Source: Turneriella sp. (GTDB lineage Bacteria > Spirochaetota > Leptospiria > Turneriellales > Turneriellaceae). Taken from it: a DNA stretch of 64,000 nucleotides. This document shows, in pieces, positions 24,251 through 52,540 of this stretch. A model generated the notes under the pieces. That model saw only the letters and a program-made list of their open reading frames with translations, made no database searches and was not told where the DNA came from. Location: NCBI GenBank assembly GCA_965279515.1, contig CBDIID010000003.1, forward strand, positions 608,001 through 672,000. Reading direction: 5' to 3'. The position numbers and the translations under genes are program-made. Within the stretch, counting starts at the first letter, position 1. Each line of letters starts with the position of its first letter.

Positions 24251-24275
24251 AAAAAAAAGGCCGGCAAAGCCGGCC
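24251..24275 (-). terminator. Rho-independent terminator following the tRNA-like 3' end (also at 25774-25800)
   Basis: Minus strand GGCCGGC-TTT-GCCGGCC followed by T8. Confidence 0.8.
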
Positions 24276-24282
24276 CCGGTCG

Positions 24283-24340
24283 TGCGTCCCGAGGGGAACC
24301 CGCCAGTGAACCTGAATGGGAGGTGGAGGTGCCGCTATAA
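24283..24340. mobile_element. Junction J1: att-like site, left boundary of the accessory array
   Basis: TGCGTCCCGAGGGGAACCCGCCAGTGAACCTGAATGGGAGGTGGAGGTGCCGC; related to six other sites. Confidence 0.7.
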
Positions 24341-24392
24341 AGGCAGATGCGATTTTTGTTGATTTTTTGATCCCATTTAGCCCATTGAGCGT

Positions 24393-24596
24393 ATGTCAGC
24401 TAAGGCCGAGCTAGTATCCTATTTAGAAACCTTGCCGGACGAACTTACGACAGCCGATCTATTGTACGAAACCTATTTCTTTCACGGTGTTAAATCCGGC
24501 TTAAATGACATCGAAAACGAAAAGACCCAGTCACATGATGAAGTCATACGGAGACATGAAGCGTGGCGAAAATCTCGTGGTCTGACTTCGCCTTAA
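24393..24596 (+). CDS. Putative antitoxin
   Basis: 67 aa, LETLPDE...GLNDIENEKTQSHDEV; overlaps the toxin gene. Confidence 0.8.
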   Translation: MSAKAELVSYLETLPDELTTADLLYETYFFHGVKSGLNDIENEKTQSHDEVIRRHEAWRKSRGLTSP

Positions 24597-24880
24597 ATCA
24601 TCTGGAAGAAATCCGCGACGACCTTGCCCGGTATTCTCTTCAGGCAGCAGATCGCACCTATTCGGGTATTGTGGAACATGTCGGCCTCTTAAGTGCGAAT
24701 CCTTTGCTCGGTAGAACAGTTCCTGAATTTCCCGCAAGCCCCTTGCAAGAAATTATTCATGATGATTATCGCATCGTTTATAGAACCGACGCTGACATGG
24801 TCAGAGTTGTTTTTATCGCTCACGGCAAACGCGATCTGAGGAAGTTTCTCAGGATGATGATCGATACACAGAACAATTGA
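24563..24880 (+). CDS. RelE/ParE-family toxin
   Basis: ISWSDFALNHLEEI, GRTVPE, YRIVY and HGKRD motifs. Confidence 0.88.
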   Translation: MAKISWSDFALNHLEEIRDDLARYSLQAADRTYSGIVEHVGLLSANPLLGRTVPEFPASPLQEIIHDDYRIVYRTDADMVRVVFIAHGKRDLRKFLRMMIDTQNN

Positions 24881-24917
24881 GCGGACGAATGGCTAAACTT
24901 TGCTTGAGATGAACTCT

Positions 24918-25046
24918 GGTTCGATTCCCCGACGGGGTCAGTGACTTATTGACCTAAAACAATAAAAAAGCCCAAAGATGAACCAATGAAATCAAGGGTT
25001 CACCTTTGGGTGAACTATGCGTCCCCTAAGGAATGCCGTTCGAACC
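24918..25046. mobile_element. End module and junction J2
   Basis: GGTTCGATTCCCCGACGGGGTCA, hairpin CCCAAAGATGAACC/GGTTCACCTTTGGG, then TGCGTCCCCTAAGGAATGCCGTTCGAACC. Confidence 0.7.
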
Positions 25047-25063
25047 GTCTTGTTTAAGTAAGG

Positions 25064-25231
25064 TTATTTACCTGTTTTCGCCTTTTTTTTAGGTTTTATT
25101 GTCCGGACAACGAAACGCGTATTTGTTTGTTTCGCCAGTTTGCGTGCATAGGCTGTCGCCTCGCGAAGGGATTTATTGATAGCCACATTTTCCGGGCTCA
25201 AGGGCTTTGATTTAAGTGCTTTTGCTTTCAT
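25064..25231 (-). CDS. Small basic protein coupled to the zeta-like ATPase
   Basis: 55 aa (MKAKALKSK...); start overlaps the upstream ORF end. Confidence 0.6.
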   Translation of the reverse strand: MKAKALKSKPLSPENVAINKSLREATAYARKLAKQTNTRFVVRTIKPKKKAKTGK

Positions 25232-25733
25232 GATCACTCGTTTCCAGTAAACGCATTGGAGCAGGACTACTGTCATATATCTTCCATGAGTCGGCAAGTT
25301 TTTTATAACTCGGCAGGTTTTCCAAGCCACGAATAAACCGCCTGCGAATAACATCGGCAGGAATATTGTGACCGCCTTGTTTGACCCGCTGTCTGACACG
25401 TTCGATGGCAAAATCCGCATTCGGAAGACTCAGGAAAATTATCTCCACGTGATAACCTTTCTTCTTCCAGCTATCGATCCGCCGTAGGTAATTCTTTGCT
25501 GACAATGTTGTCTCAAAAGCAAAGCTCACCTTTTGCTCCGCCAAATGGCTCATCTGCTTGAGTAATATACGTCCCGCTTCGACTGCAGCAAGCTCCGGCT
25601 TTAAAGGGGCAATACCTGAAGCCAAAATATCAGCATTCAGGTAATGCTTTATGTCCGGATAGTTCTTGAGAAAGAATTTTGCAAACGTCGTCTTGCCTGC
25701 CCCGTTTGGTCCCGCAATGATGAAGACCTTCAT
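25212..25733 (-). CDS. Zeta-toxin-like P-loop kinase / predicted ATPase
   Basis: IAGPNGAGKTT, NAD, FETTLS and RVRQRVKQGGHNIP..IRRRF motifs. Confidence 0.88.
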   Translation of the reverse strand: MKVFIIAGPNGAGKTTFAKFFLKNYPDIKHYLNADILASGIAPLKPELAAVEAGRILLKQMSHLAEQKVSFAFETTLSAKNYLRRIDSWKKKGYHVEIIFLSLPNADFAIERVRQRVKQGGHNIPADVIRRRFIRGLENLPSYKKLADSWKIYDSSPAPMRLLETSDHESKST

Positions 25734-25917
25734 TGTGCCCAGAAGGTCAGGACTACAACTTTACATTGGCAACAAAAAAAAAAGGCCGGCAAAGCCGGCC
25801 CCGATCGTGCGTCCCGTGGGGAACCCGCCGGTGAACCTGTGTGGGAGGTGGAGGTGCCGCTATAAAGGCAGATGCGATTTTTGTTGATTTTTTGATCCCA
25901 TTTAGCCCATTGAGCGT

Positions 25918-26121
25918 ATGTCAGCTAAGGCCGAGCTAGTATCCTATTTAGAAACCTTGCCGGACGAACTTACGACAGCCGATCTATTGTACGAAACCTA
26001 TTTCTTTCACGGTGTTAAATCCGGCTTAAATGACATCGAAAACGAAAAGACCCAGTCACATGATGAAGTCATACGGAGACATGAAGCGTGGCGAAAATCT
26101 CGTGGTCTGACTTCGCCTTAA
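25918..26121 (+). CDS. Putative antitoxin (second copy)
   Basis: Protein identical to 24393..24596. Confidence 0.8.
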   Translation: MSAKAELVSYLETLPDELTTADLLYETYFFHGVKSGLNDIENEKTQSHDEVIRRHEAWRKSRGLTSP

Positions 26122-26405
26122 ATCATCTGGAAGAAATCCGCGACGACCTTGCCCGGTATTCTCTTCAGGCAGCAGATCGCACCTATTCGGGTATTGTGGA
26201 ACATGTCGGCCTCTTAAGTGCGAATCCTTTGCTAGGTAGAACAGTTCCTGAATTTCCCGCAAGCCCCTTGCAAGAAATTATTCATGATGATTATCGCATC
26301 GTTTATAGAACCGACGCTGACATGGTCAGAGTTGTTTTTATCGCTCACGGCAAACGCGATCTGAGGAAGTTTCTCAGGATGATGATCGATACACAGAACA
26401 ATTGA
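26088..26405 (+). CDS. RelE/ParE-family toxin (second copy)
   Basis: Protein identical to 24563..24880. Confidence 0.88.
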   Translation: MAKISWSDFALNHLEEIRDDLARYSLQAADRTYSGIVEHVGLLSANPLLGRTVPEFPASPLQEIIHDDYRIVYRTDADMVRVVFIAHGKRDLRKFLRMMIDTQNN

Positions 26406-26442
26406 GCGGACGAATGGCTAAACTTTGCTTGAGATGAACTCT

Positions 26443-26589
26443 GGTTCGATTCCCCGACGGGGTCAGTGACTTATTGACCTAAAACAATAAAAAAGCCCAA
26501 AGATGAACCAATGAAATCAAGGGTTCACCTTTGGGTCTCCTATGCGTCCCGTGAGGCACCCATCGGTGAACCTGAGTGGCAGATTGAGG
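26443..26589. repeat. End module and junction J4; direct repeat with 39563-39708
   Basis: About 146 bp near-identical to 39563-39708. Confidence 0.9.
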
Positions 26590-26845
26590 TGCCGCTCGCG
26601 TGATGCAGCTAATTTGGAAGCCGACAACTTCATTTTTATCTGACCCCAGAAATGGATGGACTCCCGTTTGTTGAGTCAGCCTACGCCGGGGCATACGTTT
26701 ACCTAATACTGACTCAAAATAGTCTAACCCTACTCATATCGGCCCCTACAGGTAATAGAAGCATAACTTCCCGGTTTGTTAACGTAAGAAATCATATGTT
26801 GCCCCTTAAGGTAATCTTGAATCAGACCGGAAATATGTTGCCACT

Positions 26846-29800
26846 TTGAGAGATAAACTACTGCCTGACCGCCGCTTGCAAAATATAAGTCGCCATATCA
26901 TTATTCCACGCTTGCGCTTTGTTGCGAAGTGGGTTGCGTTTTTTACCTTAACATCCGGGTATTGGCCTTTGTTCAGCGCGGTCGACATTAATGAGTCGAC
27001 CACTTCCGTAGACATACACCCTGAGATATTCGTCGCCGAAGACGCGGCGAAGAGATTGTCAATCGCAGATGTGCTGGCCGGCAAGCTGGATTTTCACTTG
27101 ATTCAAGGCCAGACTGTAGCCCCAGGATTTACCAAAAGCGCGTACTGGGTAAAGTTTCCGTACAGCCTCACGGCGCTAAAACAATGGATTCTCGAGCTTG
27201 AATGGCCGCACCTTGAATACCTGGACTTATACATATATGACGGCCAAACACAAATTAAGAGCCGAATGAGTGGTTACATGCGCGCCCCTTCGGCTCGCGA
27301 CTATCTGAATCGAAATTTCATCTTTGACCTACCTAAGACAGACGGAAAAAGGTTCGATGTTTACATTCGCTTCGAATGCCAGGTGCCGCTGATCGTCCCC
27401 ATTGCAATAAGAACGCTCGGCGACACCTTTATCAAGAATGCTGCTGAAAAAATGTTTTATGGATTTGTATTCGGTGTTATCGGGATTATGCTTTTGTATA
27501 ATTTTTTTCTTTTCTTGACCTTGCGCGACATCAATTATCTTAATTATGTTTTCTTTTCGCTCTGTTTCGCCGGTTACAGTGTTGCCGTGAGCGGCTATCT
27601 TCGGGAATTTTTACCCGATTATCCCCGAGTAAATCTCTACGGTGTACCTGCGGTGGTGTCATTGGTGTGGCTCAGCAATTACTGGCTTGTCCGTACGTTC
27701 CTGGAATTGAAGAGTCGTAGCAAAACACTCTACTGGATTTATACGGCAGGCATCCTGATTTCTCTTTTCGGTTTTCTTCCTGCAAGCTTTATCTATCCAT
27801 TTCACACCGACATACTGCTGGATTTTCATTCATTGATTTCAGGGCTATTACTCCTAATCTCTTCGGGGTATGTCTGGCTGCGCGGCCACAGGGCCGCTCG
27901 TTATATGTTCTTGGCTTTCATCTCCTGGATCAGCGGCATGATTTTGTTGCTGGCGCGCAATTGGGGGCTTCTACCGCACAATTTTTTTACCACGCATGCG
28001 CTCCAAATAGGTTCGTTGCTCGAAATGTCGTTATTCTCACTCGCCCTCGCCGATCGCATTAATATCATCAAAGCGGAACGGGAACAAGCGCAACGTGGCG
28101 CGCTGGAGAGCGAAAAGAAAGCAGTTGAAAGCCTGAAGAAAGCGGAGGCAATCAAGGATACTTTTCTAGCGCACACGTCTCATGAATTGCGGACCCCTCT
28201 ACAGGGTATTATGGGCCTAACGGAAACAATTTTAGCTCAGACCGGCGATGTCACAATGCGCGAAAACGCGGACCTAATCATGCAAAGCGCTCGCCGCTTA
28301 TCGAATCTGATCAACGATATTCTTGACTATTCACGCATGAAAGAGCACGACATCATGCTCAATCGGGCCGATCTAGACCTTGGGCTACAAGTCAATAAAG
28401 TTATGCGAAGCCTCGAATTTGCGTCCAGGAGTAAAGGGGTTCCAATCTTCAACAACATTCGCACTGGTACCGTCTTCGTGAGTGCGGACGAACAGCGGTT
28501 ACAGCAAATTTTGTTCAATCTGATTGGGAATGCTCTGAAGTTTACGACAATCGGCTCTGTCAGTATAGAGGCAATGGAAGAGAGCGGGCAGGTTTCAATC
28601 CACATACGCGACACGGGTCGAGGAATTCCAGCCCCGAAAATCGAAGGAATATTCCAAAGGTTTGGTCGAGTCGACGATAACAATACCGACGGCACGGGGC
28701 TTGGTCTTACGATCACGAAAAGCCTGGTAGAACTCCACGGTGGAAGGATCCACGTCGAATCCATAGTAGATCGCGGCTCAACCTTTACGTTCAGTTTACG
28801 TTCGGCGCAAAGTTGCGGAGAACTGGCACCATCAGCAGAAATTCAAGCTGCAAATGCCACCGTAAGACAGGTAGCGATAAAATCGAAATACGTGCTCATC
28901 GTCGACGACGATCCTTTTATTTTGCGGAGTACTTCAGAACATCTGCGTCGCCGCGGCTTCGAGGTGGCTACCGCGCACGACGGTGCCTCGGCGCGTAGTC
29001 ATTTATTAGAAGGGGAAATCCCCCCCATACTTGTGGTATTAGATCTAATGTTGCCCGACGTTTCGGGTATTCAACTCTGTCGCGAATTTCGGGAAAAATA
29101 CGCCGCGAAAGACTTGCCGATTCTAATGCTGACAGCGCGCACTGAATTTAGGGATTTTCTTAGCGCAGCAAACGCGGGCGCAAACGATTATCTGACCAAA
29201 CCATTTGAAACTGCCGACTTGTTTCTGCGGATCGATAATCTTCTGACGCTGGCTACATTGCGCAGAGACCTGGAGACAACGGAAAGCCAGTATCTACGAC
29301 GGGTTTATGAAGACATGCACGACCATCTCGGCAGCTTGCTGACTGATATTTCGGTAATGACTGGTCAGCTACGCGAGGGCGAACATTTCGATTCGGCCGT
29401 CGTTCGGGAATTACAAAAGCAGAGCGCCTACGCGCTGCGAATTCTGCGCGAGCGTCTGCAAGCAATGGCCGATCAGGCCGAGCTGACGAAAGATTTTTTC
29501 GGCAGCCTAAACGCACAACTGTTGAGGCGGTACATAAACGCCGGGCGAACCTTGCGCTTCACCATTGAAAAAGAAGTATCGCCTCAGCTTATGCGCGAGG
29601 AAAATATGCTACTGCGCAGGGAGATCTATTTGCTCGTCAGCGAAATTGCCACGAATGACCTTAAATACGGTGTGAACGAGGCCGTTTGGTCGTGGTGGTG
29701 CGAGTCCGCGTTGCTTTGCCTAAAAATTACGACGCATAGCAATTATAACCCGACGATTCAAAAAAGAGGATTGGGTACGGCCAGCATCGCGAACCGCATG

Positions 29801-29905
29801 GCGGCGGTGGGTGGAAAGATTAGCTACGAATTGCGGGAAACTCTGCTCGACATAAGCGTTGAATTCCCCATGATTGCTCAGGAAACTTCATCGTTCCCTA
29901 TCTAA
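26846..29905 (+). CDS. 7TMR-DISM hybrid sensor histidine kinase
   Basis: DISMED2, 7TM, SHELRTPL, NALKFT/DTGRGI/GTGLGL, REC (DDD, DLMLP), then a degenerate HisKA_3-like DMHDHLG; start uncertain. Confidence 0.9.
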   Translation: MRDKLLPDRRLQNISRHIIIPRLRFVAKWVAFFTLTSGYWPLFSAVDINESTTSVDIHPEIFVAEDAAKRLSIADVLAGKLDFHLIQGQTVAPGFTKSAYWVKFPYSLTALKQWILELEWPHLEYLDLYIYDGQTQIKSRMSGYMRAPSARDYLNRNFIFDLPKTDGKRFDVYIRFECQVPLIVPIAIRTLGDTFIKNAAEKMFYGFVFGVIGIMLLYNFFLFLTLRDINYLNYVFFSLCFAGYSVAVSGYLREFLPDYPRVNLYGVPAVVSLVWLSNYWLVRTFLELKSRSKTLYWIYTAGILISLFGFLPASFIYPFHTDILLDFHSLISGLLLLISSGYVWLRGHRAARYMFLAFISWISGMILLLARNWGLLPHNFFTTHALQIGSLLEMSLFSLALADRINIIKAEREQAQRGALESEKKAVESLKKAEAIKDTFLAHTSHELRTPLQGIMGLTETILAQTGDVTMRENADLIMQSARRLSNLINDILDYSRMKEHDIMLNRADLDLGLQVNKVMRSLEFASRSKGVPIFNNIRTGTVFVSADEQRLQQILFNLIGNALKFTTIGSVSIEAMEESGQVSIHIRDTGRGIPAPKIEGIFQRFGRVDDNNTDGTGLGLTITKSLVELHGGRIHVESIVDRGSTFTFSLRSAQSCGELAPSAEIQAANATVRQVAIKSKYVLIVDDDPFILRSTSEHLRRRGFEVATAHDGASARSHLLEGEIPPILVVLDLMLPDVSGIQLCREFREKYAAKDLPILMLTARTEFRDFLSAANAGANDYLTKPFETADLFLRIDNLLTLATLRRDLETTESQYLRRVYEDMHDHLGSLLTDISVMTGQLREGEHFDSAVVRELQKQSAYALRILRERLQAMADQAELTKDFFGSLNAQLLRRYINAGRTLRFTIEKEVSPQLMREENMLLRREIYLLVSEIATNDLKYGVNEAVWSWWCESALLCLKITTHSNYNPTIQKRGLGTASIANRMAAVGGKISYELRETLLDISVEFPMIAQETSSFPI

Positions 29906-29909
29906 CCAG

Positions 29910-30530
29910 CTATAGATTAAACTTTTTCATCAACTGAATGCGCGAATGTACGCCGAATTTCTTGTAGATATGCTTGATGTGCGTCCGCACGGTATCGAAC
30001 GTAATGCCGAGTTTGTGAGCCACCTGTGTCGCACTCGCCCCGGTCGATAGTTCTTCCAGTATGTCTCTTTCGCGGGGCGTCAATCCATCGAGCTCGGTAT
30101 TACGTACGGGCGCGCCTTGTTTCATCACGCGGAAAATTCGCAGGGCAATGACCGGCGATATGGAACCTTTGCCTTCCGCTACATCTTTGACAGCTTTGCC
30201 CAACTCGCCGACTTCAGATTTGGCAATATAGCCGACCGCCCCGGCGGAAAGCCCGTCGAGTATGCTGGATTCATCCGCCTGATTGGTCAAGATCATGCAA
30301 TTGAGGTCAGGTATTTGACCCATGATTTCATAGATGAGCTTTATGCCCTCGGGTTTCGGCAGATTCAAATCGACAATCAGGACATCGAGGTCCCGTACGA
30401 CACCCAGTTGCTGCCGCAGCTTCTCGGCGTCCTGCCACGTAAAGACTTCGCTGCCAGGCATTTGATCCTTTAAAATTTGCGTCACCTGCTTTAGAAATTT
30501 CCCGTCGTCATCAATTATTCCGATACGCAT
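29910..30530 (-). CDS. NarL/LuxR-family response regulator
   Basis: REC domain (IDDD, VDLNLP) plus LTPRE...TVRTHIKHIYKK HTH. Confidence 0.92.
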   Translation of the reverse strand: MRIGIIDDDGKFLKQVTQILKDQMPGSEVFTWQDAEKLRQQLGVVRDLDVLIVDLNLPKPEGIKLIYEIMGQIPDLNCMILTNQADESSILDGLSAGAVGYIAKSEVGELGKAVKDVAEGKGSISPVIALRIFRVMKQGAPVRNTELDGLTPRERDILEELSTGASATQVAHKLGITFDTVRTHIKHIYKKFGVHSRIQLMKKFNL

Positions 30531-30607
30531 ACTTTTCCACAAACCTTGGCACACTTCGCAGATCTTCTCTAATCTGGCATGTCATTAATTACCACGTGGC
30601 AGGGGTT

Positions 30608-30667
30608 CTGTCCATACCCCAGATGGGGGAGAAGTGGCGCCCAGTGGACCTCGCCCAATTGGGGGAT
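30608..30667. promoter_or_regulatory. Two palindromic CCC(C)AATTGGGG-type operator sites in the divergent promoter region
   Basis: ATACCCCAGATGGGGGAG and TCGCCCAATTGGGGGAT; the motif recurs at 32238 and 35220. Confidence 0.6.
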
Positions 30668-30737
30668 TTACTTCGTTCTAAAATTAACTTAGGCATAGAC
30701 GGTGCAGTAAAATTTATGAACTATCAGGAGTCCGAGT

Positions 30738-32216
30738 ATGCAGAGAACACTCTTAATAATTTTGATCACTATTTTTCTTGTCACATGCGGAAAAACTGGC
30801 AACGAGAATACAGCAGCAGGTACAACGGGACCGGATACCACACCGCCAACGTTAGTCTCTTCAATCCCTGCGAACACCGCAACGGGCGTGGCTCCGTGCA
30901 GCGGCAACCCGTGCATCGGTAAAATTACACTCTCGTTCAGCGAGAGCATGGATACGACGTTTTCTCAGACTTTAACTACCGAGATAAGTAATAATAATGC
31001 CGGCACGACCTATGCAAGCGCACCGAACAATGGCACAACGTTTACCTGGAGTACGACCACATTTAGCAACGACACACTCACGATCAACATTAGCTGGCAC
31101 TGGTTTCCTGAGAATTCGAAAATCCGCTACACTGTCACGGCTGCGGGGATCAAAGATTTGGCAGGCAATGTGATTGGGGCTGATGTGCAGCGGACCTTCA
31201 CAACAACCGCACCACGACCAGGATTTGCCATCGCCGATACGGGCCAAACGCAATGCAGCTCGGGTGCTTCGGGCAACAACACCATGGCAGCCTGTCCGCA
31301 AACAATTACAGGCCAAGACGGAAATTCTGTCGATAAACCCGTGGCACGCAGCTTTACGGGCCCCACGCAGTATGGTGTCACGGGGAACTACACCACTACT
31401 GACAATGTTACCGGACTTGTTTGGGCTTCGTGCAGCGAAGGCCTTTCGGGCGCGACCTGCGCCACAGGCACGGCATCGACGCTGGTATGGACTAACGCAA
31501 TCAACCAATGCGCGGCGCTGAATGCAGCCAACTCCGGTGTCGGTTATGCAGGTAAGACAACATGGCGGCTACCGACTTCAATGGAGTTGGAGTCAATACC
31601 CAATTTGGGAACCTCGTCGCCCGCAATCGACGTGGCATTTTTTCCGGGGACAGTTTCCTCGACTTATTGGTCATCAAGCACCAATGTCGCCGCCGCGGCT
31701 GATGCCTGGCATATTAACATGAGCGACGGTCGCTCTTACATTGCAACGAGTAAAACAACGAGCAACCCGGTCCGTTGCGTTGCCGGTGCTTCGGCAGGTC
31801 CGGGCACAGTGCCTGCTTATACTGACAATGCCGATGGCACCGTGACCGATGCCCGGATAAGCCTGCGCTGGCAAAAGTGCAGTAACGGGCTCAGCGGGAT
31901 TTCTTGCGGTACTGGCACGGCGACGCAAAGCACTTGGGTGAATGCGATTGCCTATTGTCAGGGTCTAAGCCTCGCAAGCAAAACATGGAGACTTCCTTCA
32001 AAAAATGAACTACTGAGTCTCATGGATCGAAGCAAGTCAAGCCCGGCTATCGACACGACGTATTTTCCTGCGACAGTTGCATCCGCTTATTGGTCTTCGA
32101 GTACCTATATTCCGTCTGGTGGTAATGGTGGTTGGTTCGTTGGCCTAAACAATGCATCGGGCAACGGCACTAAGACGGATAACAACTATGTGCGTTGCGT
32201 GACGGACGGATCGTGA
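30738..32216 (+). CDS. Lipoprotein with Ig-like domain and two DUF1566 (Lcl-like) domains
   Basis: LVTC lipobox, DTTPP..FSESMD..KDLAGN; TDNVTGLVW..WRLPT..YWSS..VRCV occurs twice. Confidence 0.88.
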   Translation: MQRTLLIILITIFLVTCGKTGNENTAAGTTGPDTTPPTLVSSIPANTATGVAPCSGNPCIGKITLSFSESMDTTFSQTLTTEISNNNAGTTYASAPNNGTTFTWSTTTFSNDTLTINISWHWFPENSKIRYTVTAAGIKDLAGNVIGADVQRTFTTTAPRPGFAIADTGQTQCSSGASGNNTMAACPQTITGQDGNSVDKPVARSFTGPTQYGVTGNYTTTDNVTGLVWASCSEGLSGATCATGTASTLVWTNAINQCAALNAANSGVGYAGKTTWRLPTSMELESIPNLGTSSPAIDVAFFPGTVSSTYWSSSTNVAAAADAWHINMSDGRSYIATSKTTSNPVRCVAGASAGPGTVPAYTDNADGTVTDARISLRWQKCSNGLSGISCGTGTATQSTWVNAIAYCQGLSLASKTWRLPSKNELLSLMDRSKSSPAIDTTYFPATVASAYWSSSTYIPSGGNGGWFVGLNNASGNGTKTDNNYVRCVTDGS

Positions 32217-32237
32217 TGCATACACTGCGGGTCTAGC

Positions 32238-32255: not shown

Positions 32256-32294
32256 TGATGAACTACCTTAAATAGGTTATGTCGACACCATTGT

Positions 32295-44692: not shown

Positions 44693-44715
44693 ATATCATA
44701 GATCAACCAGGTGTT

Positions 44716-45978
44716 TCAATTATCTGAATCGGAGATAGTAAACTGAACCGGCAGGTGATCGCTGATGACATACTCATAAGCTGCAGTTTCCAAGCGGTCA
44801 AACTGGCCTGTGCTTTTCACCCATAATTCAAATTCTGTAATCTTCTTTATCCCAAGATCTATTTCGTTTTCAAGACCAACCCATTCCCTAATTTTACCAA
44901 TAAGGCTCATCTCTTTTGACACATAGTATAAGATGCTTTTTAAGTTGGGAATTGTTAACTGACCAAAGTGGAGATGAAAGAGCTGATTTCTCGCTTCTGT
45001 TTCTATTATCCGTTTAATTTGCTCGCAAAGACTTTTGCCTTTTTCTCTTAAGCCAGGATATCGTGGAGGCTGAGCGCGCATTTTCCGCTGACCTTCATCA
45101 ATGTTAGCAAAATCATGAAGTATTTGACTGAGCCCTGCAACTAGCGCGCCACATGCAATTACAACTGCATTTGATATCAAGGCCAAGGATGACGAGACAG
45201 ATAACGATACCGGCCTATGCCATACCTGATCATAAGGTTGAGATTCCGATTCGCCATCGCGAAGTATCCCATCTATGCTTTTCAAAGATGTGCACGCATT
45301 CCCCCCCCCCCCGGCAAGTGGACCACATTGAATGAATTGTCCGGACGATGTCCGAAGGTTTTCCAGTTCACCTTTTTTCGTATTAAAATCACCGCATAAG
45401 ATGATATCTCCAGTTAGGTCAAATTTTGCATCCGATTCAAATATTTCGAGCGTGCGGCTTAAGAATATTTGCCTAAAGTATTTAATTCTCAACTGGGCTG
45501 CGCTCTCTGCGTCTGCTGCCTTTGAAAATGGTGCATGAACGACTAATATTGCAAATGTCTTCTTTCGAAAGCCGAACTCGCCTTTAATGGCCAAAATATT
45601 TCGGATAGAGGGGGCTTCAACGGAGGACCATAATACAAGTGTTTTAAAACCGGTGACTTGGACGTTGCAGTTTTGATACAGATTTCTTCTGATTAGCACA
45701 CCGATGACCTCCCCATTTATTTGTACTGGAGGAGCTGAGTTAAACTCCGGATTCTGGGCAATGATTGCATCAAGCACAGTTTTTGCGTCGGCAATACCCA
45801 GCTCAATGATTATGACCATGTCATAGGGTGACCTATGGCTGCCATGAATATTCAGAGCCCGGCGAATTTCTGAAATCCGATCTTCCAGCGTAATCCCTCT
45901 TCCGGCAGTAATTCCCGGTCGCCTTAAATACTCTGTCAAATTCCTGATGTTCCAAACCAAGACGTTGAGCTTCGCCAT
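44716..45978 (-). CDS. Endonuclease/exonuclease/phosphatase (DNase I-like) family protein
   Basis: VWNI, IIE, VHAP, GDFN, YD and SDHLPV motifs. Confidence 0.8.
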   Translation of the reverse strand: MAKLNVLVWNIRNLTEYLRRPGITAGRGITLEDRISEIRRALNIHGSHRSPYDMVIIIELGIADAKTVLDAIIAQNPEFNSAPPVQINGEVIGVLIRRNLYQNCNVQVTGFKTLVLWSSVEAPSIRNILAIKGEFGFRKKTFAILVVHAPFSKAADAESAAQLRIKYFRQIFLSRTLEIFESDAKFDLTGDIILCGDFNTKKGELENLRTSSGQFIQCGPLAGGGGNACTSLKSIDGILRDGESESQPYDQVWHRPVSLSVSSSLALISNAVVIACGALVAGLSQILHDFANIDEGQRKMRAQPPRYPGLREKGKSLCEQIKRIIETEARNQLFHLHFGQLTIPNLKSILYYVSKEMSLIGKIREWVGLENEIDLGIKKITEFELWVKSTGQFDRLETAAYEYVISDHLPVQFTISDSDN

Positions 45979-46021
45979 TGGGCATTCCCAAAGAAAACCC
46001 GCTATCGTCAGCTAAGAAAGT

Positions 46022-46906
46022 CTAAACCCCCTTCAGCCATCGTAAAAAAACATCCCGATGCGTTTTTCCGTCAGTCGCTTCCAAATGAGAATGAGGACCT
46101 GTTGAATTTCCTATAGCCCTGTCTGCAATACTGATAAAAGTTCCGGGCTCGAATATCTGCCCTTTGCCTGCGGCAATTGCGTCACTCACGCGCGTTTGGT
46201 GTGCAATGCGTAGTTGCCCAAGCACGTTACCGGTTTTGTTAAATATTGAAATCAAAAGATAAGAACCAAATCTGCTGCCCGGGGTTTCAATAACAAAATC
46301 ATCGACACGAAACTTAGCATTAGGGCCCCACACTTCGTGCCCGATGTCTGTGCGCCAGGTCTGGTCTGCTCCAGAACCCGGGCGCCCACCATGCGAGGGA
46401 AATTTCGTATAGGCGTCATATGCGGTAAGATTGAGTCTGAAATTGCCTCCGATAATATGCACGTCGGCACTGTTATTATAAACCTTCGTGCCATCGGCCA
46501 GCTCGAAGGCAACTTTGTCGGTCCCTTTAAAATGCAGAGTTCTGATGATTTCGGCCTCGTATGGATTAGTGAAACCTTTGTAAGTGCCAAAAAAATAGCG
46601 TTGCTGCATTCGCTTATTTTCTGCCTGCCCTGCCGAAGTTTTCGCGTTCTCATGCCATTTCTTGTATTCCGCGGCGATTATTTCCATCAGCGCATTTTTC
46701 TCCTCTGTAGAGCCCCCAAGGATTGCAATTGCTTTCTCTGCCGCAGCTCGGTCTTTCAGAAAATAGATAGCTTTAATCTCTTCAGTAAGTTGAGAGAAAT
46801 CTGGTACGCTTAAGCCTGTTCGTGCTTGCTTAGGACTATGATGCGTTTTCCCGGGTGAAGAAACAGATTTTTTCTCTTGGGGTGAACGATGATTTGAACC
46901 AACCAT
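46022..46906 (-). CDS. Hypothetical protein with M23-peptidase-like C-terminal motif
   Basis: IAH...GQ...GNSTGPHSHLE. Confidence 0.6.
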   Translation of the reverse strand: MVGSNHRSPQEKKSVSSPGKTHHSPKQARTGLSVPDFSQLTEEIKAIYFLKDRAAAEKAIAILGGSTEEKNALMEIIAAEYKKWHENAKTSAGQAENKRMQQRYFFGTYKGFTNPYEAEIIRTLHFKGTDKVAFELADGTKVYNNSADVHIIGGNFRLNLTAYDAYTKFPSHGGRPGSGADQTWRTDIGHEVWGPNAKFRVDDFVIETPGSRFGSYLLISIFNKTGNVLGQLRIAHQTRVSDAIAAGKGQIFEPGTFISIADRAIGNSTGPHSHLEATDGKTHRDVFLRWLKGV

Positions 46907-47018
46907 GACAACAGGGTTTTATGGAGATTTTGGCAGGCAAGTATTTATTCGGGCGGTAAAGATTTTCGATTGCCCCGAACCGGAGATCACCTTTTATTCG
47001 CAGGACCACCGCATTTTA

Positions 47019-47086
47019 CCTAAAAAAATCCATCGGAGCAACCCGCCGGTGAACCTGAGTGGCAAATTGAGGTGAACCTTCCCTGA
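47019..47086. mobile_element. Junction J6 (internally deleted)
   Basis: ACCCGCCGGTGAACCTGAGTGGCAAATTGAGGT present; TGCGTCCC core absent. Confidence 0.65.
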
Positions 47087-47143
47087 AATGCAACTTCGGA
47101 TCATAAATCAGCGCAATGGCCCGACCCTTTTGCCGACATGACT

Positions 47144-49240
47144 CTACCTTTTCGTTAAGACGACAATCGACGGAACGGGTCTGTTATCATTCCCGGTCGA
47201 GTTTGTTCGATTTAGGGGCAAAGGCCCCTTTCGCGGAATGACGATTTGCGAGGATCCGCCGCTGTCGAATAGGATCACGTTCTCTCCACCAACACCGGCA
47301 ATCTTGTCGCGAAACCGCTCTAGAGTCAGGCCGATATTTGTCTTCCAGCCATCACTGACCACGAGGAATATATAACTGCCCCCAAATGCGATTGCCGTTC
47401 GCGCGTCCCCGGAAATATCTTGCGACCAACCGGCATCGACTAGAGCGGCCGAAACATTCTTAAGTAAACCGTTTTCCACGAGTAATGCACCTCCACCAAC
47501 CGCATGGAAAGCCGATGGCAGCTCATCCTCTTTGAAATGCGTCGCAGTAGTTTTTGCCAGGAATACTTCATTGGTGGCTGTCAGAGCAAATACGGGCCGT
47601 TTCGGAATTGTTTTTATGCAGAAGCCCAAATTGTCATACAATTTGCAGGTATTGAACTTAACTGCCCCGTCGATCTTGTGGAAGCCGACTAAATTTGTTT
47701 CCTTCCCTTCTTCCTTCACTGGACCAAACAAGCCGGCATTAATAGCCGCCAGAACGGGAATTCCGTTCGCCTGCAGATTACCAACCCAACTTTTGAGCGA
47801 ATAGCCAATCGCGGCACCGCCACCTACAGTGGCTTGGACATGGGGTTTGAGGCTAATCTCACCATTTAGCAGAGAACTTTTCGCAATAAAGACCCAATGC
47901 ATGGCTAAGCCCACTTCGAATGTGCGGCGGCAGTAAAAAATACCGGAAGCGAGGTTCTCCCCGGTAACACCCAGCCGTTCTTTGCATGGATCGTTTCTCA
48001 GGCTAGGGAGATCGACTATTGCTTCGCCAGGCGATGGATATTTCTCCAGTTCTTGGCGCACTGCGACTACCTCGGGGCGATTGATCGAGGTTTCAGCCGG
48101 CAGATATTTTTTTATTTGGATCTGCGGCATTTTGAAATCAAAAGCAGGAAATTTCATACCGAAGGTGAAGCCTTCTGAATCAGGGTACTGATGCTCGATA
48201 CCCCAATCGACGCGTATATGATTTAGGTCGGAGATATCAATGTTCGACTGCATTCCCCACTGCTTCTGGATAAATCCCTCCACTGTAAGCTCCACCCATT
48301 CTCTTGCCAAGGTAGGTATTTGTCCGACGAGCCAGAACACGCGATCAGCCAGGAAACCGGCGACTGAGCCGATGACTCCAATGAGATCTGCAACGAAGCC
48401 GCCAAAGTTAGCATTGACCCGCAGGTTTGTTTCAGCCATTGGTCTAGTTGCCGCAGTTAAGAAGCCTGCATCAGGATAGCATCTGTAACCCAGGAATTTC
48501 ACACAGTATCGATCTGCGTAGTACTCGATCACTGCGCCGCCGTCGGCGTATTTCTCATACATGGCCTGCCCCGTATCTGTATTTATGCCGTAAGTAAGGC
48601 CAGCGAGGTATTTGCCCTTCGGAGCACCGGAGAAATAAACCTCCGCACCTTCTTGAAAGAGGAGTTGCTGTAAACTCACCGTAGAGTTTTGATCGCCCAG
48701 AGCATGCGCAATCATTGTGGCTCGCGCAACGTAGTATGCGAAGCCCGGACCGTTTTTTTCTATGACTTCGGCTGCCATGTTGTCTCTTTTGATTTCAATG
48801 TGGTTTCGTTGCGGCAAAATATGGAATGCTAGCGCACGCGTGCCGCTCTTACCAATAATCGTATCCGTGACGAGGAGTGAACCATCCGGCAGCGGCGAAG
48901 TAGTGGCATATACCGGAGTAACTGCCGCGGAATTGTATTCGGGTGTCACCTTCAGGAGAAACTCCTTATGGTTATTGCCACCGCAATCGACGTCGATCTT
49001 AACCACGCTGCTGATGCCCGGTGATAAATTGCCAATCGTCAGGTAATTGCCATACCTCTTCCCAGACCGCTCGCTCCGTACATCGCAGCCCTCGGCGCCC
49101 TCTAATCGGATGTTTGCCGAAGTTCCGCGCGCCCAAGCCAGATTGACCCCAACGCGATCAATAGGATTCTCGGTATGCGCACAATGCGGAAAGTAGACAA
49201 AAATCGGTATTAGCAGCAAAGTTTTTAATGAATATTTCAT
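47144..49240 (-). CDS. Exported protein with C-terminal phosphodiester glycosidase (NAGPA-like) domain
   Basis: AINAGLF, GGGALLV, ARTAI, VSDG, DSGGSS and RPV motifs; AGGAG RBS. Confidence 0.78.
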   Translation of the reverse strand: MKYSLKTLLLIPIFVYFPHCAHTENPIDRVGVNLAWARGTSANIRLEGAEGCDVRSERSGKRYGNYLTIGNLSPGISSVVKIDVDCGGNNHKEFLLKVTPEYNSAAVTPVYATTSPLPDGSLLVTDTIIGKSGTRALAFHILPQRNHIEIKRDNMAAEVIEKNGPGFAYYVARATMIAHALGDQNSTVSLQQLLFQEGAEVYFSGAPKGKYLAGLTYGINTDTGQAMYEKYADGGAVIEYYADRYCVKFLGYRCYPDAGFLTAATRPMAETNLRVNANFGGFVADLIGVIGSVAGFLADRVFWLVGQIPTLAREWVELTVEGFIQKQWGMQSNIDISDLNHIRVDWGIEHQYPDSEGFTFGMKFPAFDFKMPQIQIKKYLPAETSINRPEVVAVRQELEKYPSPGEAIVDLPSLRNDPCKERLGVTGENLASGIFYCRRTFEVGLAMHWVFIAKSSLLNGEISLKPHVQATVGGGAAIGYSLKSWVGNLQANGIPVLAAINAGLFGPVKEEGKETNLVGFHKIDGAVKFNTCKLYDNLGFCIKTIPKRPVFALTATNEVFLAKTTATHFKEDELPSAFHAVGGGALLVENGLLKNVSAALVDAGWSQDISGDARTAIAFGGSYIFLVVSDGWKTNIGLTLERFRDKIAGVGGENVILFDSGGSSQIVIPRKGPLPLNRTNSTGNDNRPVPSIVVLTKR

Positions 49241-49252
49241 GGTTTTCTCCTT

Positions 49253-50686
49253 TTATTTCTCGGTTGTGCGCTGGGCCGTAACCGCAAATCGCACAACCGT
49301 CGTATAAGTGATATTTGCATAAACCCCTTCGTCAAAAGAACAATCGTATGGGACCGGCAAAGGCACAGGTGGCCACCAACCTGCCCATACCCACATAATA
49401 CAGGTAGCGCTCACGCGGCGATAGCCGACGAGTTCATTCTTCGTTTCGGTTTTTGAGCCCTCCGCCGCTATAAGCGTTACCTCGGAGATGGTATCATCCG
49501 CAACGAAAGTATCTCCCGCGGCTATGGTTAAACCGTTTGCTACCATCGACGCACCGGAATTATTCGGCGCGTATGAAATAACTTGGTTGTTTCTGAGCCG
49601 CCCCACAAAGCATGCCGGGGAGACGATAGACCCTGCCTCTATCGCCACAGCCAAATTCTTGTTGTTCTGGTTCACGGCTAAATCTGTACCATACGCTTGC
49701 TGGTTGAGCAGGTAGGTTTTGTCCAGATAGACACGAGATGCGTACCGCGTGTCCATAACGCGAAATCTCGTGGAAAAGATCTGTGCGTTTGCGTAGTCTT
49801 GATTTTCTACTTGCGAAATTCTGGCGGCGTCACTATATATTGTGCTCGGGTATGAAAACGTAGTCCCTGTCGGAGCATCGTCGATAAATACCTCGGCGCT
49901 TCGTTCGCCGGCAACTGTAATCGTATTCTGCACTCCGAATCCGTGTAGGCGAATAAAGCTTTCGAAAGGATCCATATTGTTGATGGCCACGGCTCCCAGC
50001 CTGAATACGCCGCTTTCGGAGAAAGGACCCTGATCGCCGTCGGCGAACACAGCGCGCACCCGAACAAAGTAGATATATTCGGGTGAACCAGAGAAGGTAA
50101 GCAACGGCGTTACCGTATGTTCGCTCACCTCGTTATTACCCGTGTTAAAGAGTGGATTATCACGGCGAACTTCAATGTAGTATTTAACCGCACCATAAAC
50201 AGCACGCCAGGTGATTTTTGCTGGAACATTTAAAGATTGGGCTTCTATCGCAGGGTCAGGAGCAATAAAGATTGGACGCTCCGCTTTGTCGATAATGGGG
50301 GTCGTTTCCAGAGGGATAAGATTGTAAGCGGAATCCAAATAGTTGGAAACGACGCTGCCTGACTCAAGCACTAAGCCTGAAACTGTTAAACTGGTTTGAA
50401 CGCCGGTACCGAAACCGAAGTTCAGTAGCGCACAACCTTCCGCATTCACGCTGATTTGAGCGGGGCGCCCCTGCAGAGAACTTTCCGCCAGCGCGGTCAC
50501 GGTTTTTATCCGCTGGTTCGCGCAGGCCTTGACAATGATCTCTTTGCTCAAATCGAACCTAGAGCCTGAGGGTGGTTCTATCTGAGTCAACCCATGCTTA
50601 CTAACAGTCAGATCAATCCCACCACGGCAAGCCGCGAAGGAAAATACGGCAAAAAAAGCAAAATATCGCCGAAGGGTAAAACGCAT
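49253..50686 (-). CDS. Lipoprotein with FN3-like domain
   Basis: FAAC lipobox after Met 50686 (alternative start 50815); ITW..YFVRVRAV..GPFS. Confidence 0.7.
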   Translation of the reverse strand: MRFTLRRYFAFFAVFSFAACRGGIDLTVSKHGLTQIEPPSGSRFDLSKEIIVKACANQRIKTVTALAESSLQGRPAQISVNAEGCALLNFGFGTGVQTSLTVSGLVLESGSVVSNYLDSAYNLIPLETTPIIDKAERPIFIAPDPAIEAQSLNVPAKITWRAVYGAVKYYIEVRRDNPLFNTGNNEVSEHTVTPLLTFSGSPEYIYFVRVRAVFADGDQGPFSESGVFRLGAVAINNMDPFESFIRLHGFGVQNTITVAGERSAEVFIDDAPTGTTFSYPSTIYSDAARISQVENQDYANAQIFSTRFRVMDTRYASRVYLDKTYLLNQQAYGTDLAVNQNNKNLAVAIEAGSIVSPACFVGRLRNNQVISYAPNNSGASMVANGLTIAAGDTFVADDTISEVTLIAAEGSKTETKNELVGYRRVSATCIMWVWAGWWPPVPLPVPYDCSFDEGVYANITYTTVVRFAVTAQRTTEK

Positions 50687-50934
50687 AGGGCCCCCCTTTA
50701 AGGTGATCAAGGGCCATTCGCTGGTTGCTTCGGCCACACCAGCCCCAACGATGCAAAAAACAATATTGTGACAAAAAAAGGGAAAATGTTTCCTAAGAAA
50801 TTGTATAAGAGACATAGCAATCCTCCCAAGACAATTCTAGATTACGTTGATTGAAGGGCCAATTCAGGGCCGTCAATATTTTTATCGCAGAAAGACTGTA
50901 GTTTGCCGGCATATTACTGCAATTTTGAATTTTC

Positions 50935-52206
50935 ATGCTTTGCAGCATGATTTCTGCATTTACTGATGCCTTTATGAAAACTGGCAAGCCAAGCTTTGAA
51001 TGGGGAGGCCTTAAGATTCCGGCAGCGAATCGCATCCTTAACTTTTTTCTGACATCTCTACAAAACCTTAACCTCAATCAGACTGAAAAAATAGACCTAT
51101 TTAAAGCTTTTGTAATCCTATTCTCAGACCTATTTTATGTCAAACCCTCGGCAGACGACGAAAAAGAGCAAACGAAGTTACAAAGAAAGCTGTCGCCAAT
51201 CGACAAAAGAAGAACCGCAATAATGAAAGCTCTTAACGGATTGAAAATCAACCTCAAGCCGACCGAATACGATGAGATATGCAATAAGGTGACACGCGAC
51301 AGCCAGCTGTGGAATTCTCTCAAATTGACATCGCTTGAGATCTTAGAAAAGCCTAGGTATCAGTTCAAACCACAATTCAGAACTATAACGACCACCGAAG
51401 CAGTGTTTAGGCATTTTTTCAAGGGATCCACCGTTCCAAATTGGTTTCCAAGGTTCATACTCAGTCATGCAGACGGATATCTTGGAGTTGCGAGAACAGC
51501 TATCGAAAGAGTAATAAAAAGATTTGAGTCTACTCCTCCATCCAGCATTAAACTCGCCGTAAGCGGGGGCAACAGCAGCTTCACCTACGTTTTTCGGCTT
51601 GTTGAAGATTTGCTCGAAGCAAAAATTAATCTCAATAACATTGATTTTGAAATATACACCGCTGGCGATCGGGCCTTTTTATCAGAGCTAGAAGAACGAA
51701 TAGACAACGCATGGATATTAAACTCAATTCTTAAACAACAGAGACTGAAAAGTCGATACGTATCATTCGAGAAAGCACGCGCACAACAGAAAAACGATCA
51801 AGATAATAAGCTCCACCTTGATGTCCTTTATTGCGGCATAGGCTCGTTTGAAACCCGCAACAACACATCTTTCAAAGAATACCTAGAAGACAGAAATATC
51901 TCTGGATGGGATTTCGAAATTTGCGATGAAATTTTTTTTATAACCGAGCCAAAGGATAAAGAAACTCAAAAAAAACTGCAAGAGTACTTTACCAATATTT
52001 TCAGACATAACGAAGTTGGCGCAAAAAGGAAAATCTTACTTTGCAACGGTGCAGAAAAGGCTAAGCCATTACGGAGCTTCTTGAGTTACCTATCTAGACG
52101 CCAGGACAGCTACACCTTGCAGAAACAAAACATAGTTACTCATGTCATCTTAGACACTGAGTTACTCCGCGCATTATTGCGAATGAGTCATCTCGCTGGA
52201 GGATAA
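50935..52206 (+). CDS. Protein with SorC/DeoR-type sugar-binding-like C-terminal domain
   Basis: LAVSGG, DVLYCGIG, GAEKA and THVILD pattern; unrecognised N-terminus. Confidence 0.55.
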   Translation: MLCSMISAFTDAFMKTGKPSFEWGGLKIPAANRILNFFLTSLQNLNLNQTEKIDLFKAFVILFSDLFYVKPSADDEKEQTKLQRKLSPIDKRRTAIMKALNGLKINLKPTEYDEICNKVTRDSQLWNSLKLTSLEILEKPRYQFKPQFRTITTTEAVFRHFFKGSTVPNWFPRFILSHADGYLGVARTAIERVIKRFESTPPSSIKLAVSGGNSSFTYVFRLVEDLLEAKINLNNIDFEIYTAGDRAFLSELEERIDNAWILNSILKQQRLKSRYVSFEKARAQQKNDQDNKLHLDVLYCGIGSFETRNNTSFKEYLEDRNISGWDFEICDEIFFITEPKDKETQKKLQEYFTNIFRHNEVGAKRKILLCNGAEKAKPLRSFLSYLSRRQDSYTLQKQNIVTHVILDTELLRALLRMSHLAGG

Positions 52207-52327
52207 TGTCATAAAGGAAATCGCAATGTCTTCTCCGATCTAGCTGGCGCCTTCACTTTTTTAGTCGACGGTTAGATTTACAGGTGCAGGGATTATGTAA
52301 CTTTAGAACTCACAATAGTACAGGCTT

Positions 52328-52435
52328 ATGGGGAAAAATATTGTCATCTGCTGCGACGGTGCAGAAAACTAATTGTCTAAACACCATACAAATGTGGTCC
52401 GCGCCTTTTGCAGAATCCTTGGAATTTATGCCTAA
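52328..52435 (+). pseudogene. 5' remnant of a DUF2235 (Tle1-like alpha/beta hydrolase) gene
   Basis: MGKNIVICCDGAEN*LSKHHTNVVR matches the family N-terminal KxIVxCxDGTxN...TNV; internal stop; truncated at J7. Confidence 0.65.
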
Positions 52436-52540
52436 AATGCAGTCGGAACAACCCGCAGGTGTGGTGCACCTTTGGGCCTCCCGTGCGTCCCCGGGTATTC
52501 CCAATTACGAACCTGAGTGGGCGGTGGAGGTAGAACTGCC
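52431..52540. mobile_element. Junction J7
   Basis: CACCTTTGGG..TGCGTCCCCGGGTATTCCCAATTACGAACCTGAGTGGGCGGTGGAGGT. Confidence 0.7.

Follow-up and report, generated by a model that had tools for sequence, protein, structure and literature searches.

Tandemly stacked integrative elements at the 3′ end of a Turneriella tRNA-Glu gene and the large serine recombinase that probably assembled them

What kind of element leaves a row of tRNA-like repeats along a bacterial chromosome, and which enzyme places them there? The question is raised by a 64,000-nt stretch of DNA of Turneriella sp. (source genome G000, 4.9 Mb; contig C3, positions 608001-672000), referred to here as the window, in which seven junctions (J1-J7, left to right) delimit a series of modules (M1-M7). 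A preliminary description, made from the letters alone, had likened the region to an integron. In this study, the region was identified, with high confidence, as a series of integrative elements stacked in tandem at the 3′ terminus of a tRNA-Glu(UUC) gene by a large serine recombinase (LSR). The array covers 67 kb, from window position 24283 to 27.4 kb past the window's right end, and consists of seven modules, with the LSR gene in M7 only.

The junction repeats were examined with pattern scans and a repeat finder. The core pattern TGCG(N0-1)CCC followed by GAACC 14-18 nt on (the true gap is 16-17 nt) matched the window six times, at 24283, 25018, 25808, 26543, 39663 and 52484, all on the plus strand, while the mean in 100 shuffled sequences was 0.09 and none reached six. 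Moreover, the continuation motif GAACCTG..TGG......GAGG was found six times (24308, 25833, 26568, 39687, 47051 and 52509) against an expectation of 0, and the repeat finder returned a 54-nt family of six copies (24283, 25808, 26543, 39662, 47026 and 52484), a 107-nt block, designated D3, at 24918, 26443 and 39563, and a duplication of 24251-24550 at 25776-26075 with 98% identity. The related sites of the preliminary description were therefore present where it had placed them, although the one near 47041 (J6) held only in part, being a partial copy (47026-47085) that keeps the distal 50 nt and lacks the TGCG(T)CCC core. In addition, the core of J5 (39663) was short of one base (TGCG-CCC), and the arm of J2 (25018) differed from those of the other junctions. 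The excess over a tRNA T-arm and acceptor, formerly put at 7-8 nt, was counted as 6 nt, or 5 nt at J2, and the minus-strand terminator hairpins reported after J1-J5 were recovered by a terminator scan and fold analysis. A profile built from the six copies matched these six only in the whole genome; the motif is confined to one locus and so is not a repetitive extragenic palindromic (REP) or other dispersed repeat, the genome-wide scatter that had been named as a possible objection. The array junctions are the att sites of tandemly stacked integrative units.

The target of these sites lies outside the window. ARAGORN found no tRNA within the window and 39 in the genome; those closest on the window's right side are two minus-strand genes, tRNA-Glu(UUC) and tRNA-Lys, and tRNA-Glu(UUC) is located at C3:699427-699499, 27.4 kb right of the window, with the 3′ end GGGGACGCA. 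This 3′ end and the next 22 nt (GGGGACGCA TAGGAGACCCAAAGGTGAACCC) recur at J4 and J5 and, with changes, at J2 and J7. Thus the intact minus-strand tRNA predicted to the right of the window was found, and so was the recombinase predicted near it: a gene for a 562-aa LSR (C3:697777-699465) converges on tRNA-Glu and abuts it, its stop lying 39 nt inside the tRNA and its last 13 codons being antisense to it. The product harbors a Resolvase domain (PF00239, E 1.8e-26), a Recombinase domain (PF07508, E 8.9e-22) and a Zn_ribbon_recom domain (PF13408, E 8.3e-11). Its translation carries YLRVSTKKQ near the N-terminus, which we take to be the catalytic motif, and four Cys in the ribbon region, presumably the zinc ligands. 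It is the sole Resolvase-domain gene of the genome, and its neighbors are a 109-aa open reading frame (ORF) with no Pfam match, a D5-like primase, an AAA+ protein and an insertion sequence (IS). A tyrosine recombinase was also considered as the agent and was rejected: the four tyrosine recombinase genes (PF00589) lie at 1.40, 2.78, 2.93 and 4.83 Mb, the array lies at 0.63-0.70 Mb, so that the nearest is about 0.7 Mb or more away, and Pfam detected no tyrosine recombinase domain in the array ORFs. Among the 25 hits at E<=1e-20 from a search of 5.8 billion proteins, three clusters shared at least 52% identity with the LSR (its own, one at 55% and one at 52%). For more distant relatives (<=34% identity over the best segment), 41 loci were fetched, many of them short, and tRNAs near the gene were seen at the G007 locus only. 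Separately, ARAGORN found no tmRNA gene in this genome, rated 99.99% complete, although no Rfam-model search for a one-piece or two-piece tmRNA was made.

The geometry of the sites is that of a serine integrase. Here P and P′ denote the element arms, B and B′ the tRNA-side arms, and junctions are written in the tRNA sense, as left arm, core and right arm. The attP site is a 51-bp imperfect dyad, GGTTC-N20-A-N20-GAACC, centred in the 8-nt core GGGACGCA, the final portion of the acceptor strand of the tRNA. Among P arms whose core is intact, GGTTC ended 20 nt from the centre in nine of ten cases and 19 nt from it at J2, while the palindromic P(z) arm of the metagenome contig L066 had no GGTTC. 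In the tRNA half-sites, the T-loop GGTTC ended 14 nt before the central A in 6/6, i.e., 6 bp nearer the centre, and in the P′ arms of the D3/LSR kind GAACC started 20 nt after the central A in 9/9. The attB of serine integrases is described by Rutherford et al. 2013 (PMC3783163) as about 10 bp shorter than attP, with the zinc-ribbon motif displaced 5 bp towards the centre. A tRNA T-arm with extra nucleotides is hence what an attP half-site should look like when the tRNA itself acts as its partner. The marks of a serine integrase were thus found together, namely the domain set, an attP dyad of about 50 bp and an attB outer motif nearer the crossover (6 bp versus about 5). All four half-site combinations were observed: B-B′ at empty sites; B-P′ at the tRNA-proximal junctions of G000, G007, G008 and L066; P-B′ at J1, and also at J3 if the T1-like left side is taken as B′; and P-P′ at J2, J4, J5, J7 and the inner junctions of G007 and G008. 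T1 is the native tRNA-Glu terminator (CGATCGGGGCCGGC..), which directly follows tRNA-Glu at empty sites and stands left of J1 and J3. The arms switch directly on both sides of GGGACGCA, these 8 nt are common to all four combinations, and the exchange point is placed only within them.

A second line of evidence comes from the coding frame, since the LSR gene runs across attP and its plus-strand frame continues through P′ and the core. The chromosomal gene ends …VHLWVSYAS-PRGIEPLLRE (stop), and the same frame read over the P-P′ joint at J4 gives …VHLWVSYAS-REAPIGEPEWQIEVPLA (stop). Similar tails were read from other arms, also in G007, G008 and G005, and share the circle-form pattern …WVSYAS-R..P..EPEW.[IV]EV.L; after excision, the J7 arm is predicted to supply a 29-residue end (…WVSYAS, then PGIPNYEPEWAVEVELPPSLKGKTEVISPKY and a stop) that replaces the last 10 residues of the LSR. 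In a descriptive count over eight non-identical arms, codon differences in the LSR frame were 87 synonymous and 156 non-synonymous, compared with 47/202 and 18/216 in the other plus-strand frames. Furthermore, five different codons were used for the Leu at the last conserved position, and 9/9 tails stop 16-29 codons past the core. The EW.[IV]EV.L block lies outside the 51-bp dyad, which points to a constraint on the peptide and not on the DNA alone. Judged from these patterns, the 54-nt repeat would have two roles, as a binding arm and as a conserved coding tail. Two readings drawn from the sequence alone, a group II intron 5′ end (GUGCG) and an integron attC site, were dropped after the tRNA trailer match and the coding frame had been recognised.

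The relatives were found in empty, single and stacked states. A search of 61 genomes for the composite junction gave matches in seven including G000, five of them among the other 13 genomes of the genus; relatives are cited here by G numbers. The tRNA-Glu loci were examined at 18 of the 20 fetched from the family, those omitted being a 1.5-kb contig end (G019) and a duplicate locus (G003). Empty sites, with tRNA-Glu and then T1, were present at five loci in four genomes of the same genus (G011, G005 at two loci, G003 and G002). G007 carries a single 34.7-kb element whose 52%-identical LSR overlaps tRNA-Glu likewise and whose far end is a P arm with the same tail. G008 (assembly 86% complete) has no LSR but a 32-codon stub, and two modules with the same junctions, one with a YhcG-type nuclease and a TOTE primase-helicase and the other with VapBC and an unknown ORF, are followed by a pseudogenised zeta-toxin unit. 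The metagenome scan returned only two contigs, one of which equals a G008 junction; in the other, L066, the order is T1/P(z), zeta cassette, T1-like/P(b), 9.5 kb without an LSR, and a hairpin joined to tRNA-Glu. The D3-ended modules of G008 and L066 have no LSR, and their cargo comprises TOTE with YhcG, VapBC and two large unknown ORFs. A zeta cassette with the same ends was found in L066 and G009, where it is flanked by T1/P(z), and in pseudogenised form in G008; its neighbors differ among L066/G009, G008 and G000, and the cut is always at the core. The comparison with relatives proposed in the preliminary description thus placed the module boundaries at the same core. A long ORF running into tRNA-Glu was seen in G000 and G007 only (18 loci), while short stubs in G006 and G008 still read …W V S x A S.

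Several further observations were made at this site in the genus, where the DNA directly after tRNA-Glu differs in nearly every species. In G006 (L073) the hairpin end has diverged, yet GVRCWVSTAS can still be read from it in the LSR frame, and in G001 (L074), G012 (L075), G013 (L076) and G010 (L081) the DNA that begins right behind the final GCA of the tRNA is unrelated; in these four genomes the tRNA-Glu site may be used by further element types. In G003 (C8:27892-28549; L078/L086), an inverted copy of the tRNA-Glu 3′ end (24 nt, one mismatch) lies about 0.6 kb downstream of the real tRNA-Glu and is fused to a palindromic GTTCGAAC arm, as in the P(z) of the zeta cassette; either an inversion or a site in the opposite orientation could account for this. 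Two tRNA-Lys/tRNA-Glu loci are present in G005 (L021, C7:488001-508000, and L023 on C4). The C7 tRNA pair is 83% identical to that of G000, with an altered tRNA-Glu anticodon arm and a native-type terminator following, and an orphan P arm lies on a different terminator 13 kb further. The second locus could be a second stack with another type of P′, or two strains in one bin.

These data suggest the following course of events. In attB, the tRNA's own T-loop GGTTC would serve as the outer motif, 6 bp nearer the centre than in attP, and integration would rebuild the tRNA and leave the P arm at the element's other end. Later elements would probably each enter at the tRNA-proximal junction and push earlier ones outward, giving the order, from the outer end to the tRNA, of ParDE (M1), zeta (M2), ParDE (M3), M4, M5, M6 and M7. 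The end of the LSR gene would be read antisense within the tRNA when the element is in the chromosome, and within the P arm on an excised circle. The units without an LSR, namely the ParDE and zeta-toxin units and other D3-ended modules, retain both the P and the P′ half-site in full and provide the tRNA with a terminator, and they could probably be moved in trans or in cis by the resident LSR. Only M7, the apparently newest element, keeps the LSR, and M4 and M6 appear to be decayed autonomous elements: both retain LSR gene stubs (54 codons in M6, weaker in M4), which suggests that they arrived autonomous and then decayed.

The outer end of the array, J1 (24251..24340, minus strand), consists of the T1 terminator hairpin at 24257-24277 on the B′ side, the core at 24283-24290 and P arm a, which on the plus strand encodes ASRGEPASEPEWEVEVPL and a stop. 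To its left, about 23 kb (window 754-24000) are non-syntenic with G002 and contain no att-like junctions; the G002 homologue of window -7300..754 is only 8.4 kb from its tRNA-Glu, with unrelated DNA between. M1 (24283..25017, plus strand) is a 0.74-kb ParDE cassette that extends from P arm a to the D3 end block at 24918-25024 and encodes a ParD-like antitoxin (ORF 24393-24596) and a ParE toxin (24563-24880; Pfam ParE_toxin, E 1.2e-13). M2 (25018..25807, minus strand) is a 0.79-kb zeta-toxin-like cassette with the J2 core at 25018-25025, the palindromic P arm z, a zeta-like ATPase gene at 25212-25733 on the minus strand (Pfam Zeta_toxin, E 5.3e-13) with a small ORF downstream, and a T1-like terminator at its right end (25776-25807). 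M3 (25808..26542, plus strand), the second ParDE copy, has the J3 core at 25808-25815, P arm a and D3 at 26443-26549. The 581-nt interiors of M1 and M3 are nearly identical (1049 and 1044 bits), and the M3 tail shows one non-synonymous change (EPVW).

The three D3 copies (24918..25024, 26443-26549 and 39563-39669, minus strand) are 97-100% identical among themselves and contain a P′ half-site, a terminator hairpin of 14 bp followed by a U-run, and an inverted tRNA-Glu-3′-like segment (GGTTCGATTCCCCGACGGGGTCA on the plus strand); the J4 and J5 copies had fold z-scores of -5.1 and -6.2. The hairpin half, when translated, resembles the final 22-24 residues of the LSR. Homologous blocks were found in G008, G004 and L066, in a variant form in G004 and L066. 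The inverted segment occupies window positions 24918-24940, 26443-26465 and 39563-39585, and it also occurs at L020:7020-7045 and 11045-11069, in L083 (G004) and at about 840-870 of L066. It lies about 27 nt past the terminator hairpin, forms a long interrupted palindrome with the tRNA end and is conserved across species, and it could be an accessory or decoy half-site.

The larger modules follow on the tRNA side. M4 (26543..39662, 13.1 kb, no overall strand assigned) begins with the J4 core at 26543-26550 and P arm b, whose tail is ASREAPIGEPEWQIEVPLA and a stop, and has D3 as its right end. Pfam assigned to its cargo a 7TMR-DISM hybrid histidine kinase, a LuxR-type response regulator, and Lcl_C/Big_5 and other surface-type proteins. 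The candidate LSR pseudogene stub at 39406-39551 is collinear with LSR residues 428-476, a weak match (E 0.43 per piece) that was also judged by eye. Within M4, the 326-aa ORF at 33323-34303 has five coding repeats spaced by about 120 nt (33503-34260), with weak EPTP/beta-propeller-like Pfam hits. M5 (39663..47040, 7.4 kb, minus strand) starts at the J5 core that is one base short and lacks a right-hand att site, and its four minus-strand ORFs (317, 1318, 420 and 294 aa) had no Pfam or PADLOC match. J6 (47026..47085, plus strand) is a partial P arm (…EQPAGEPEWQIEVNLP and a stop) with no core and no P′ side; the M5/M6 boundary is decayed. M6 (47041..52483, 5.5 kb, no overall strand assigned) encodes a NAGPA-domain protein at 47144-49240 on the minus strand and ORFs of 520 and 423 aa, and keeps a 3′ stub of its own LSR gene at 52335-52493, which tblastn aligned with LSR residues 500-553 at 43% identity (E 6.9e-4), rising to 61% over residues 523-553. 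The earlier statement that no intact gene crosses a junction holds, although a 100-aa ORF (52284-52586) does span J7; it is a recombinase gene stub fused to the tail of the next module and is not an intact gene.

J7 (52484..52586, plus strand), with its core at 52484-52491 and P arm c, is the left end of the autonomous M7, a 39-kb module that occupies 52484..64000 of the window and continues to C3:699434 (no overall strand assigned). In the window, M7 encodes an MkoA-like RNase_H_2/SF1 helicase (52661-56095), a CapP-like M78 peptidase (57402-57938), an E2-E1-JAB fusion (59621-61864) and two LmuA-like proteins, as assigned with Pfam and PADLOC. To the right of the window follow an HmaA-like SNF2 helicase, an HmaB-like methylase, a DUF499 ATPase, Rad52, Gp157, DUF932, a sigma factor, an IS, a D5-like primase and the LSR. 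M7 thus carries a dense defence block over window 52661-64000 and L001:253-10452.

Whether the units without an LSR were ever mobile as such is a separate question. The possibility that the array is a dead scar, a fossil record of successive LSR-bearing elements that decayed in place, with the LSR-less modules never mobile as such, is a serious one that we nevertheless judge rather unlikely. M4 and M6 hold LSR stubs, D3 is derived from the 3′ end of an LSR gene, the J5 core has a 1-nt deletion and the J6 core is lost, no excision products were seen, and accretion followed by decay is the published default for such tandems (PMC5704250). However, the ParDE unit is present twice with the same inner boundaries and was thus copied after its reduction to 0.74 kb, and at least five cargo sets (M1/M3, M4, G008-A, G008-B and G004) have one and the same D3 end, with the hairpin in the place of the LSR. 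Because D3 is common to unrelated cargo in several genomes, it appears to be a common LSR-less end and not the product of separate deletions. In addition, the right-hand joints of the two ParDE copies, D3/P(z) and D3/P(b), are alike in the core of about 10 nt only, which suggests that an already reduced 0.74-kb unit was inserted twice via the core, either at both junctions flanking the zeta cassette or by repeated accretion at the tRNA. An origin of the duplication by homologous recombination was rejected, since recombination between the copies of T1 would lead to gain or loss of a zeta unit and not to these joints. Trans-mobilisation of small LSR-less units is plausible, the main evidence for their past movement being this ParDE duplication in one genome.

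A bolder extension of the tandem-stack reading is that the locus is the serine-recombinase counterpart of an integron, in which the circle and chromosomal tails of the LSR set the direction or stability of recombination without a directionality factor, LSR-less cassettes of less than 1 kb to 13 kb are moved in trans, D3 re-terminates the tRNA, and the site captures toxin-antitoxin (TA) and defence genes for this lineage of spirochaetes. This proposal is speculative, and we think it doubtful as a whole.

Very improbable is the fixed, integron-like platform in which a resident recombinase captures promoterless, non-autonomous cassettes by its primary site, the form in which the preliminary description had cast the region. 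It is true that there are many small LSR-less units, some under 1 kb, with TA and defence genes as in chromosomal integrons, and that a single recombinase gene stands at the tRNA end. The enzyme, however, is a serine recombinase and not IntI, there is no tyrosine recombinase nearby, and its gene is not fixed but lies inside the newest, tRNA-proximal 39-kb element with its own P arm at J7, so that a new insertion would displace it. Likewise, G008 carries cassettes without an LSR in its incomplete assembly, genes occur in both orientations, and M4 has regulators of its own. The units are also not uniformly non-autonomous, at least two of them, M4 and M6, being apparently decayed autonomous elements. 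Finally, it is scarcely credible that the repeats represent a multicopy small RNA gene, a repeat derived from a tRNA or an element of the REP kind, with no tie to site-specific recombination, for, although each copy looks like the 3′ part of a tRNA and is followed by a terminator on the minus strand, Rfam gave no match in the window at gathering thresholds and no known RNA family explains the repeats, no copies occur elsewhere in the genome, the copies align with a real tRNA-Glu end and its trailer, they bear a coding signature in the LSR frame, and in relatives they stand exactly at the borders of variable DNA.

Several points weigh against the stack as reconstructed here. With regard to the sites, the 8-nt common core is longer than the overlap of 2 bp that LSRs typically use, and no GAACC motif is seen in the B′ half. 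Well-studied serine integrases, as far as the sources go, do not recombine attP with attL- or attR-type hybrids without a directionality factor, so stacking at a P′-B hybrid junction needs a behavior that canonical enzymes avoid, and no directionality factor was recognised. With regard to the coding tail, one antisense frame was almost equal to the LSR frame (80/154), and the codon counts come from nine related, non-independent sequences and are descriptive, not a test. The LSR clade is tiny and all three close clusters have the integrated, chromosomal form of the tail; no recorded protein has the predicted excised tail, and a scan of viral contigs for core and tail gave 0 matches. With regard to movement, J5 and J6 are damaged and M5 and M6 cannot move separately, and the ParDE cassette was not found in the other 19 genomes of the family, so that the case for its mobility comes from a single genome. 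In the strain itself, where assembled contigs of the presumed source runs were compared, neither an excised circle nor an empty site nor another module order was seen. The contigs of four runs from one study (share 0.97) break at the repeats and agree with the assembly, and are neutral on excision, nine other runs with word shares of 0.05-0.10 having been left out; a joint at which one contig goes back, at 40000/39677, is the J5/J6 repeat, and loose ends at 26521 and 26550 correspond to the repeat shared with the tRNA-proximal junction.

If the exchange of the LSR C-terminus on integration is real, it would tie the topology of the element to the function of its recombinase. A comparable arrangement is reportedly found in myxophage Mx8 (intP/intX), in which attP lies inside the integrase gene and integration changes the C-terminus of the integrase; the Mx8 Int is said to be a tyrosine recombinase. 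The locus also offers a legible natural case of attP/attB half-site spacing, with the T-loop motif of the tRNA reused 6 bp further out in attP, and the 51-bp attP and tRNA-borne attB that go with this new and very rare clade of LSRs are candidates for trial as a recombination tool. Moreover, the array shows TA and anti-phage genes gathering at one site.

Among known systems, class 1 and chromosomal integrons are alike in having rows of small, often TA units separated by recombination sites beside one recombinase gene. They differ in that the present array has no IntI by an attI, no attC (no attC model was run) and no common promoter; its genes lie on both strands, with a two-component pair in M4, its junctions are copies of the tRNA end with LSR arms, and its recombinase is mobile. 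The composite islands of the staphylococcal cassette chromosome (SCC) also result from large serine recombinases (Ccr) acting at the 3′ end of one conserved gene, and include recombinase-less, repeat-bounded pseudo-SCC units; on description, they are set apart by their rlmH target, by enzymes that act as CcrA/CcrB pairs or as CcrC, and by their resistance or adaptation cargo. Accretion of integrative and conjugative elements (ICE), integrative and mobilisable elements (IME) and cis-mobilisable elements (CIME) (Pavlovic 2004, Bellanger 2011, via PMC5704250) is alike in that cis-mobilisation of a composite is possible. M1, M2, M3 and M4, with core and arms on both sides, correspond to a CIME as defined in PMC5704250, and M5 and M6, with the mutated J5 and the coreless J6, do not; the reviewed systems have tyrosine integrases, long segments of identity and conjugative or mobilisable elements, whereas here a serine recombinase and no recognisable transfer genes were found.

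The closest resemblance is to the Dehalococcoides ssrA islands and their recombinase DsiB (McMurdie et al. 2011, PMC3146451). There, tandem islands lie no more than 100 kb downstream of the tRNA-type gene (tDNA), each bounded by a direct repeat of its 3′ end; a gene for a serine recombinase of about 540 aa stands beside the tDNA and overlaps both it and attL; a conserved motif by the repeat does not align with the tDNA; and islands without the integration module are read as cis-mobilisable, the authors suggesting that the integrase may be complete only on the circle. Both systems thus share an integrase that overlaps the 3′ end of its target and tandem islands without an integrase. The differences are that the Dehalococcoides target is a tmRNA gene with a T-loop crossover, and the target here is a true tRNA, Glu-UUC, used at the acceptor strand in a Spirochaetota host; that the six-gene module there, including the small serine recombinase DsiA and ParB, Mom and RecF homologues, is absent here; that the DsiB overlap is described as divergent there and the alternative tail is protein-conserved here; and that TA cassettes under 1 kb with a terminator block occur here, the comparison having been made by description and not with the DsiB sequence. 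The array is therefore a known kind of island stacking that departs from the specific features of the Dehalococcoides family and of integrons.

Genes for tRNA are the classic landing sites of tyrosine integrases, and serine-family integrases are stated in the Islander paper (PMC4383910) not to be known to target them, the tmRNA islands of Dehalococcoides being a published exception among tDNAs. To that exception the Turneriella locus adds a sequence-resolved case at a true tRNA gene in another phylum, with the empty, single and stacked states found in close relatives.

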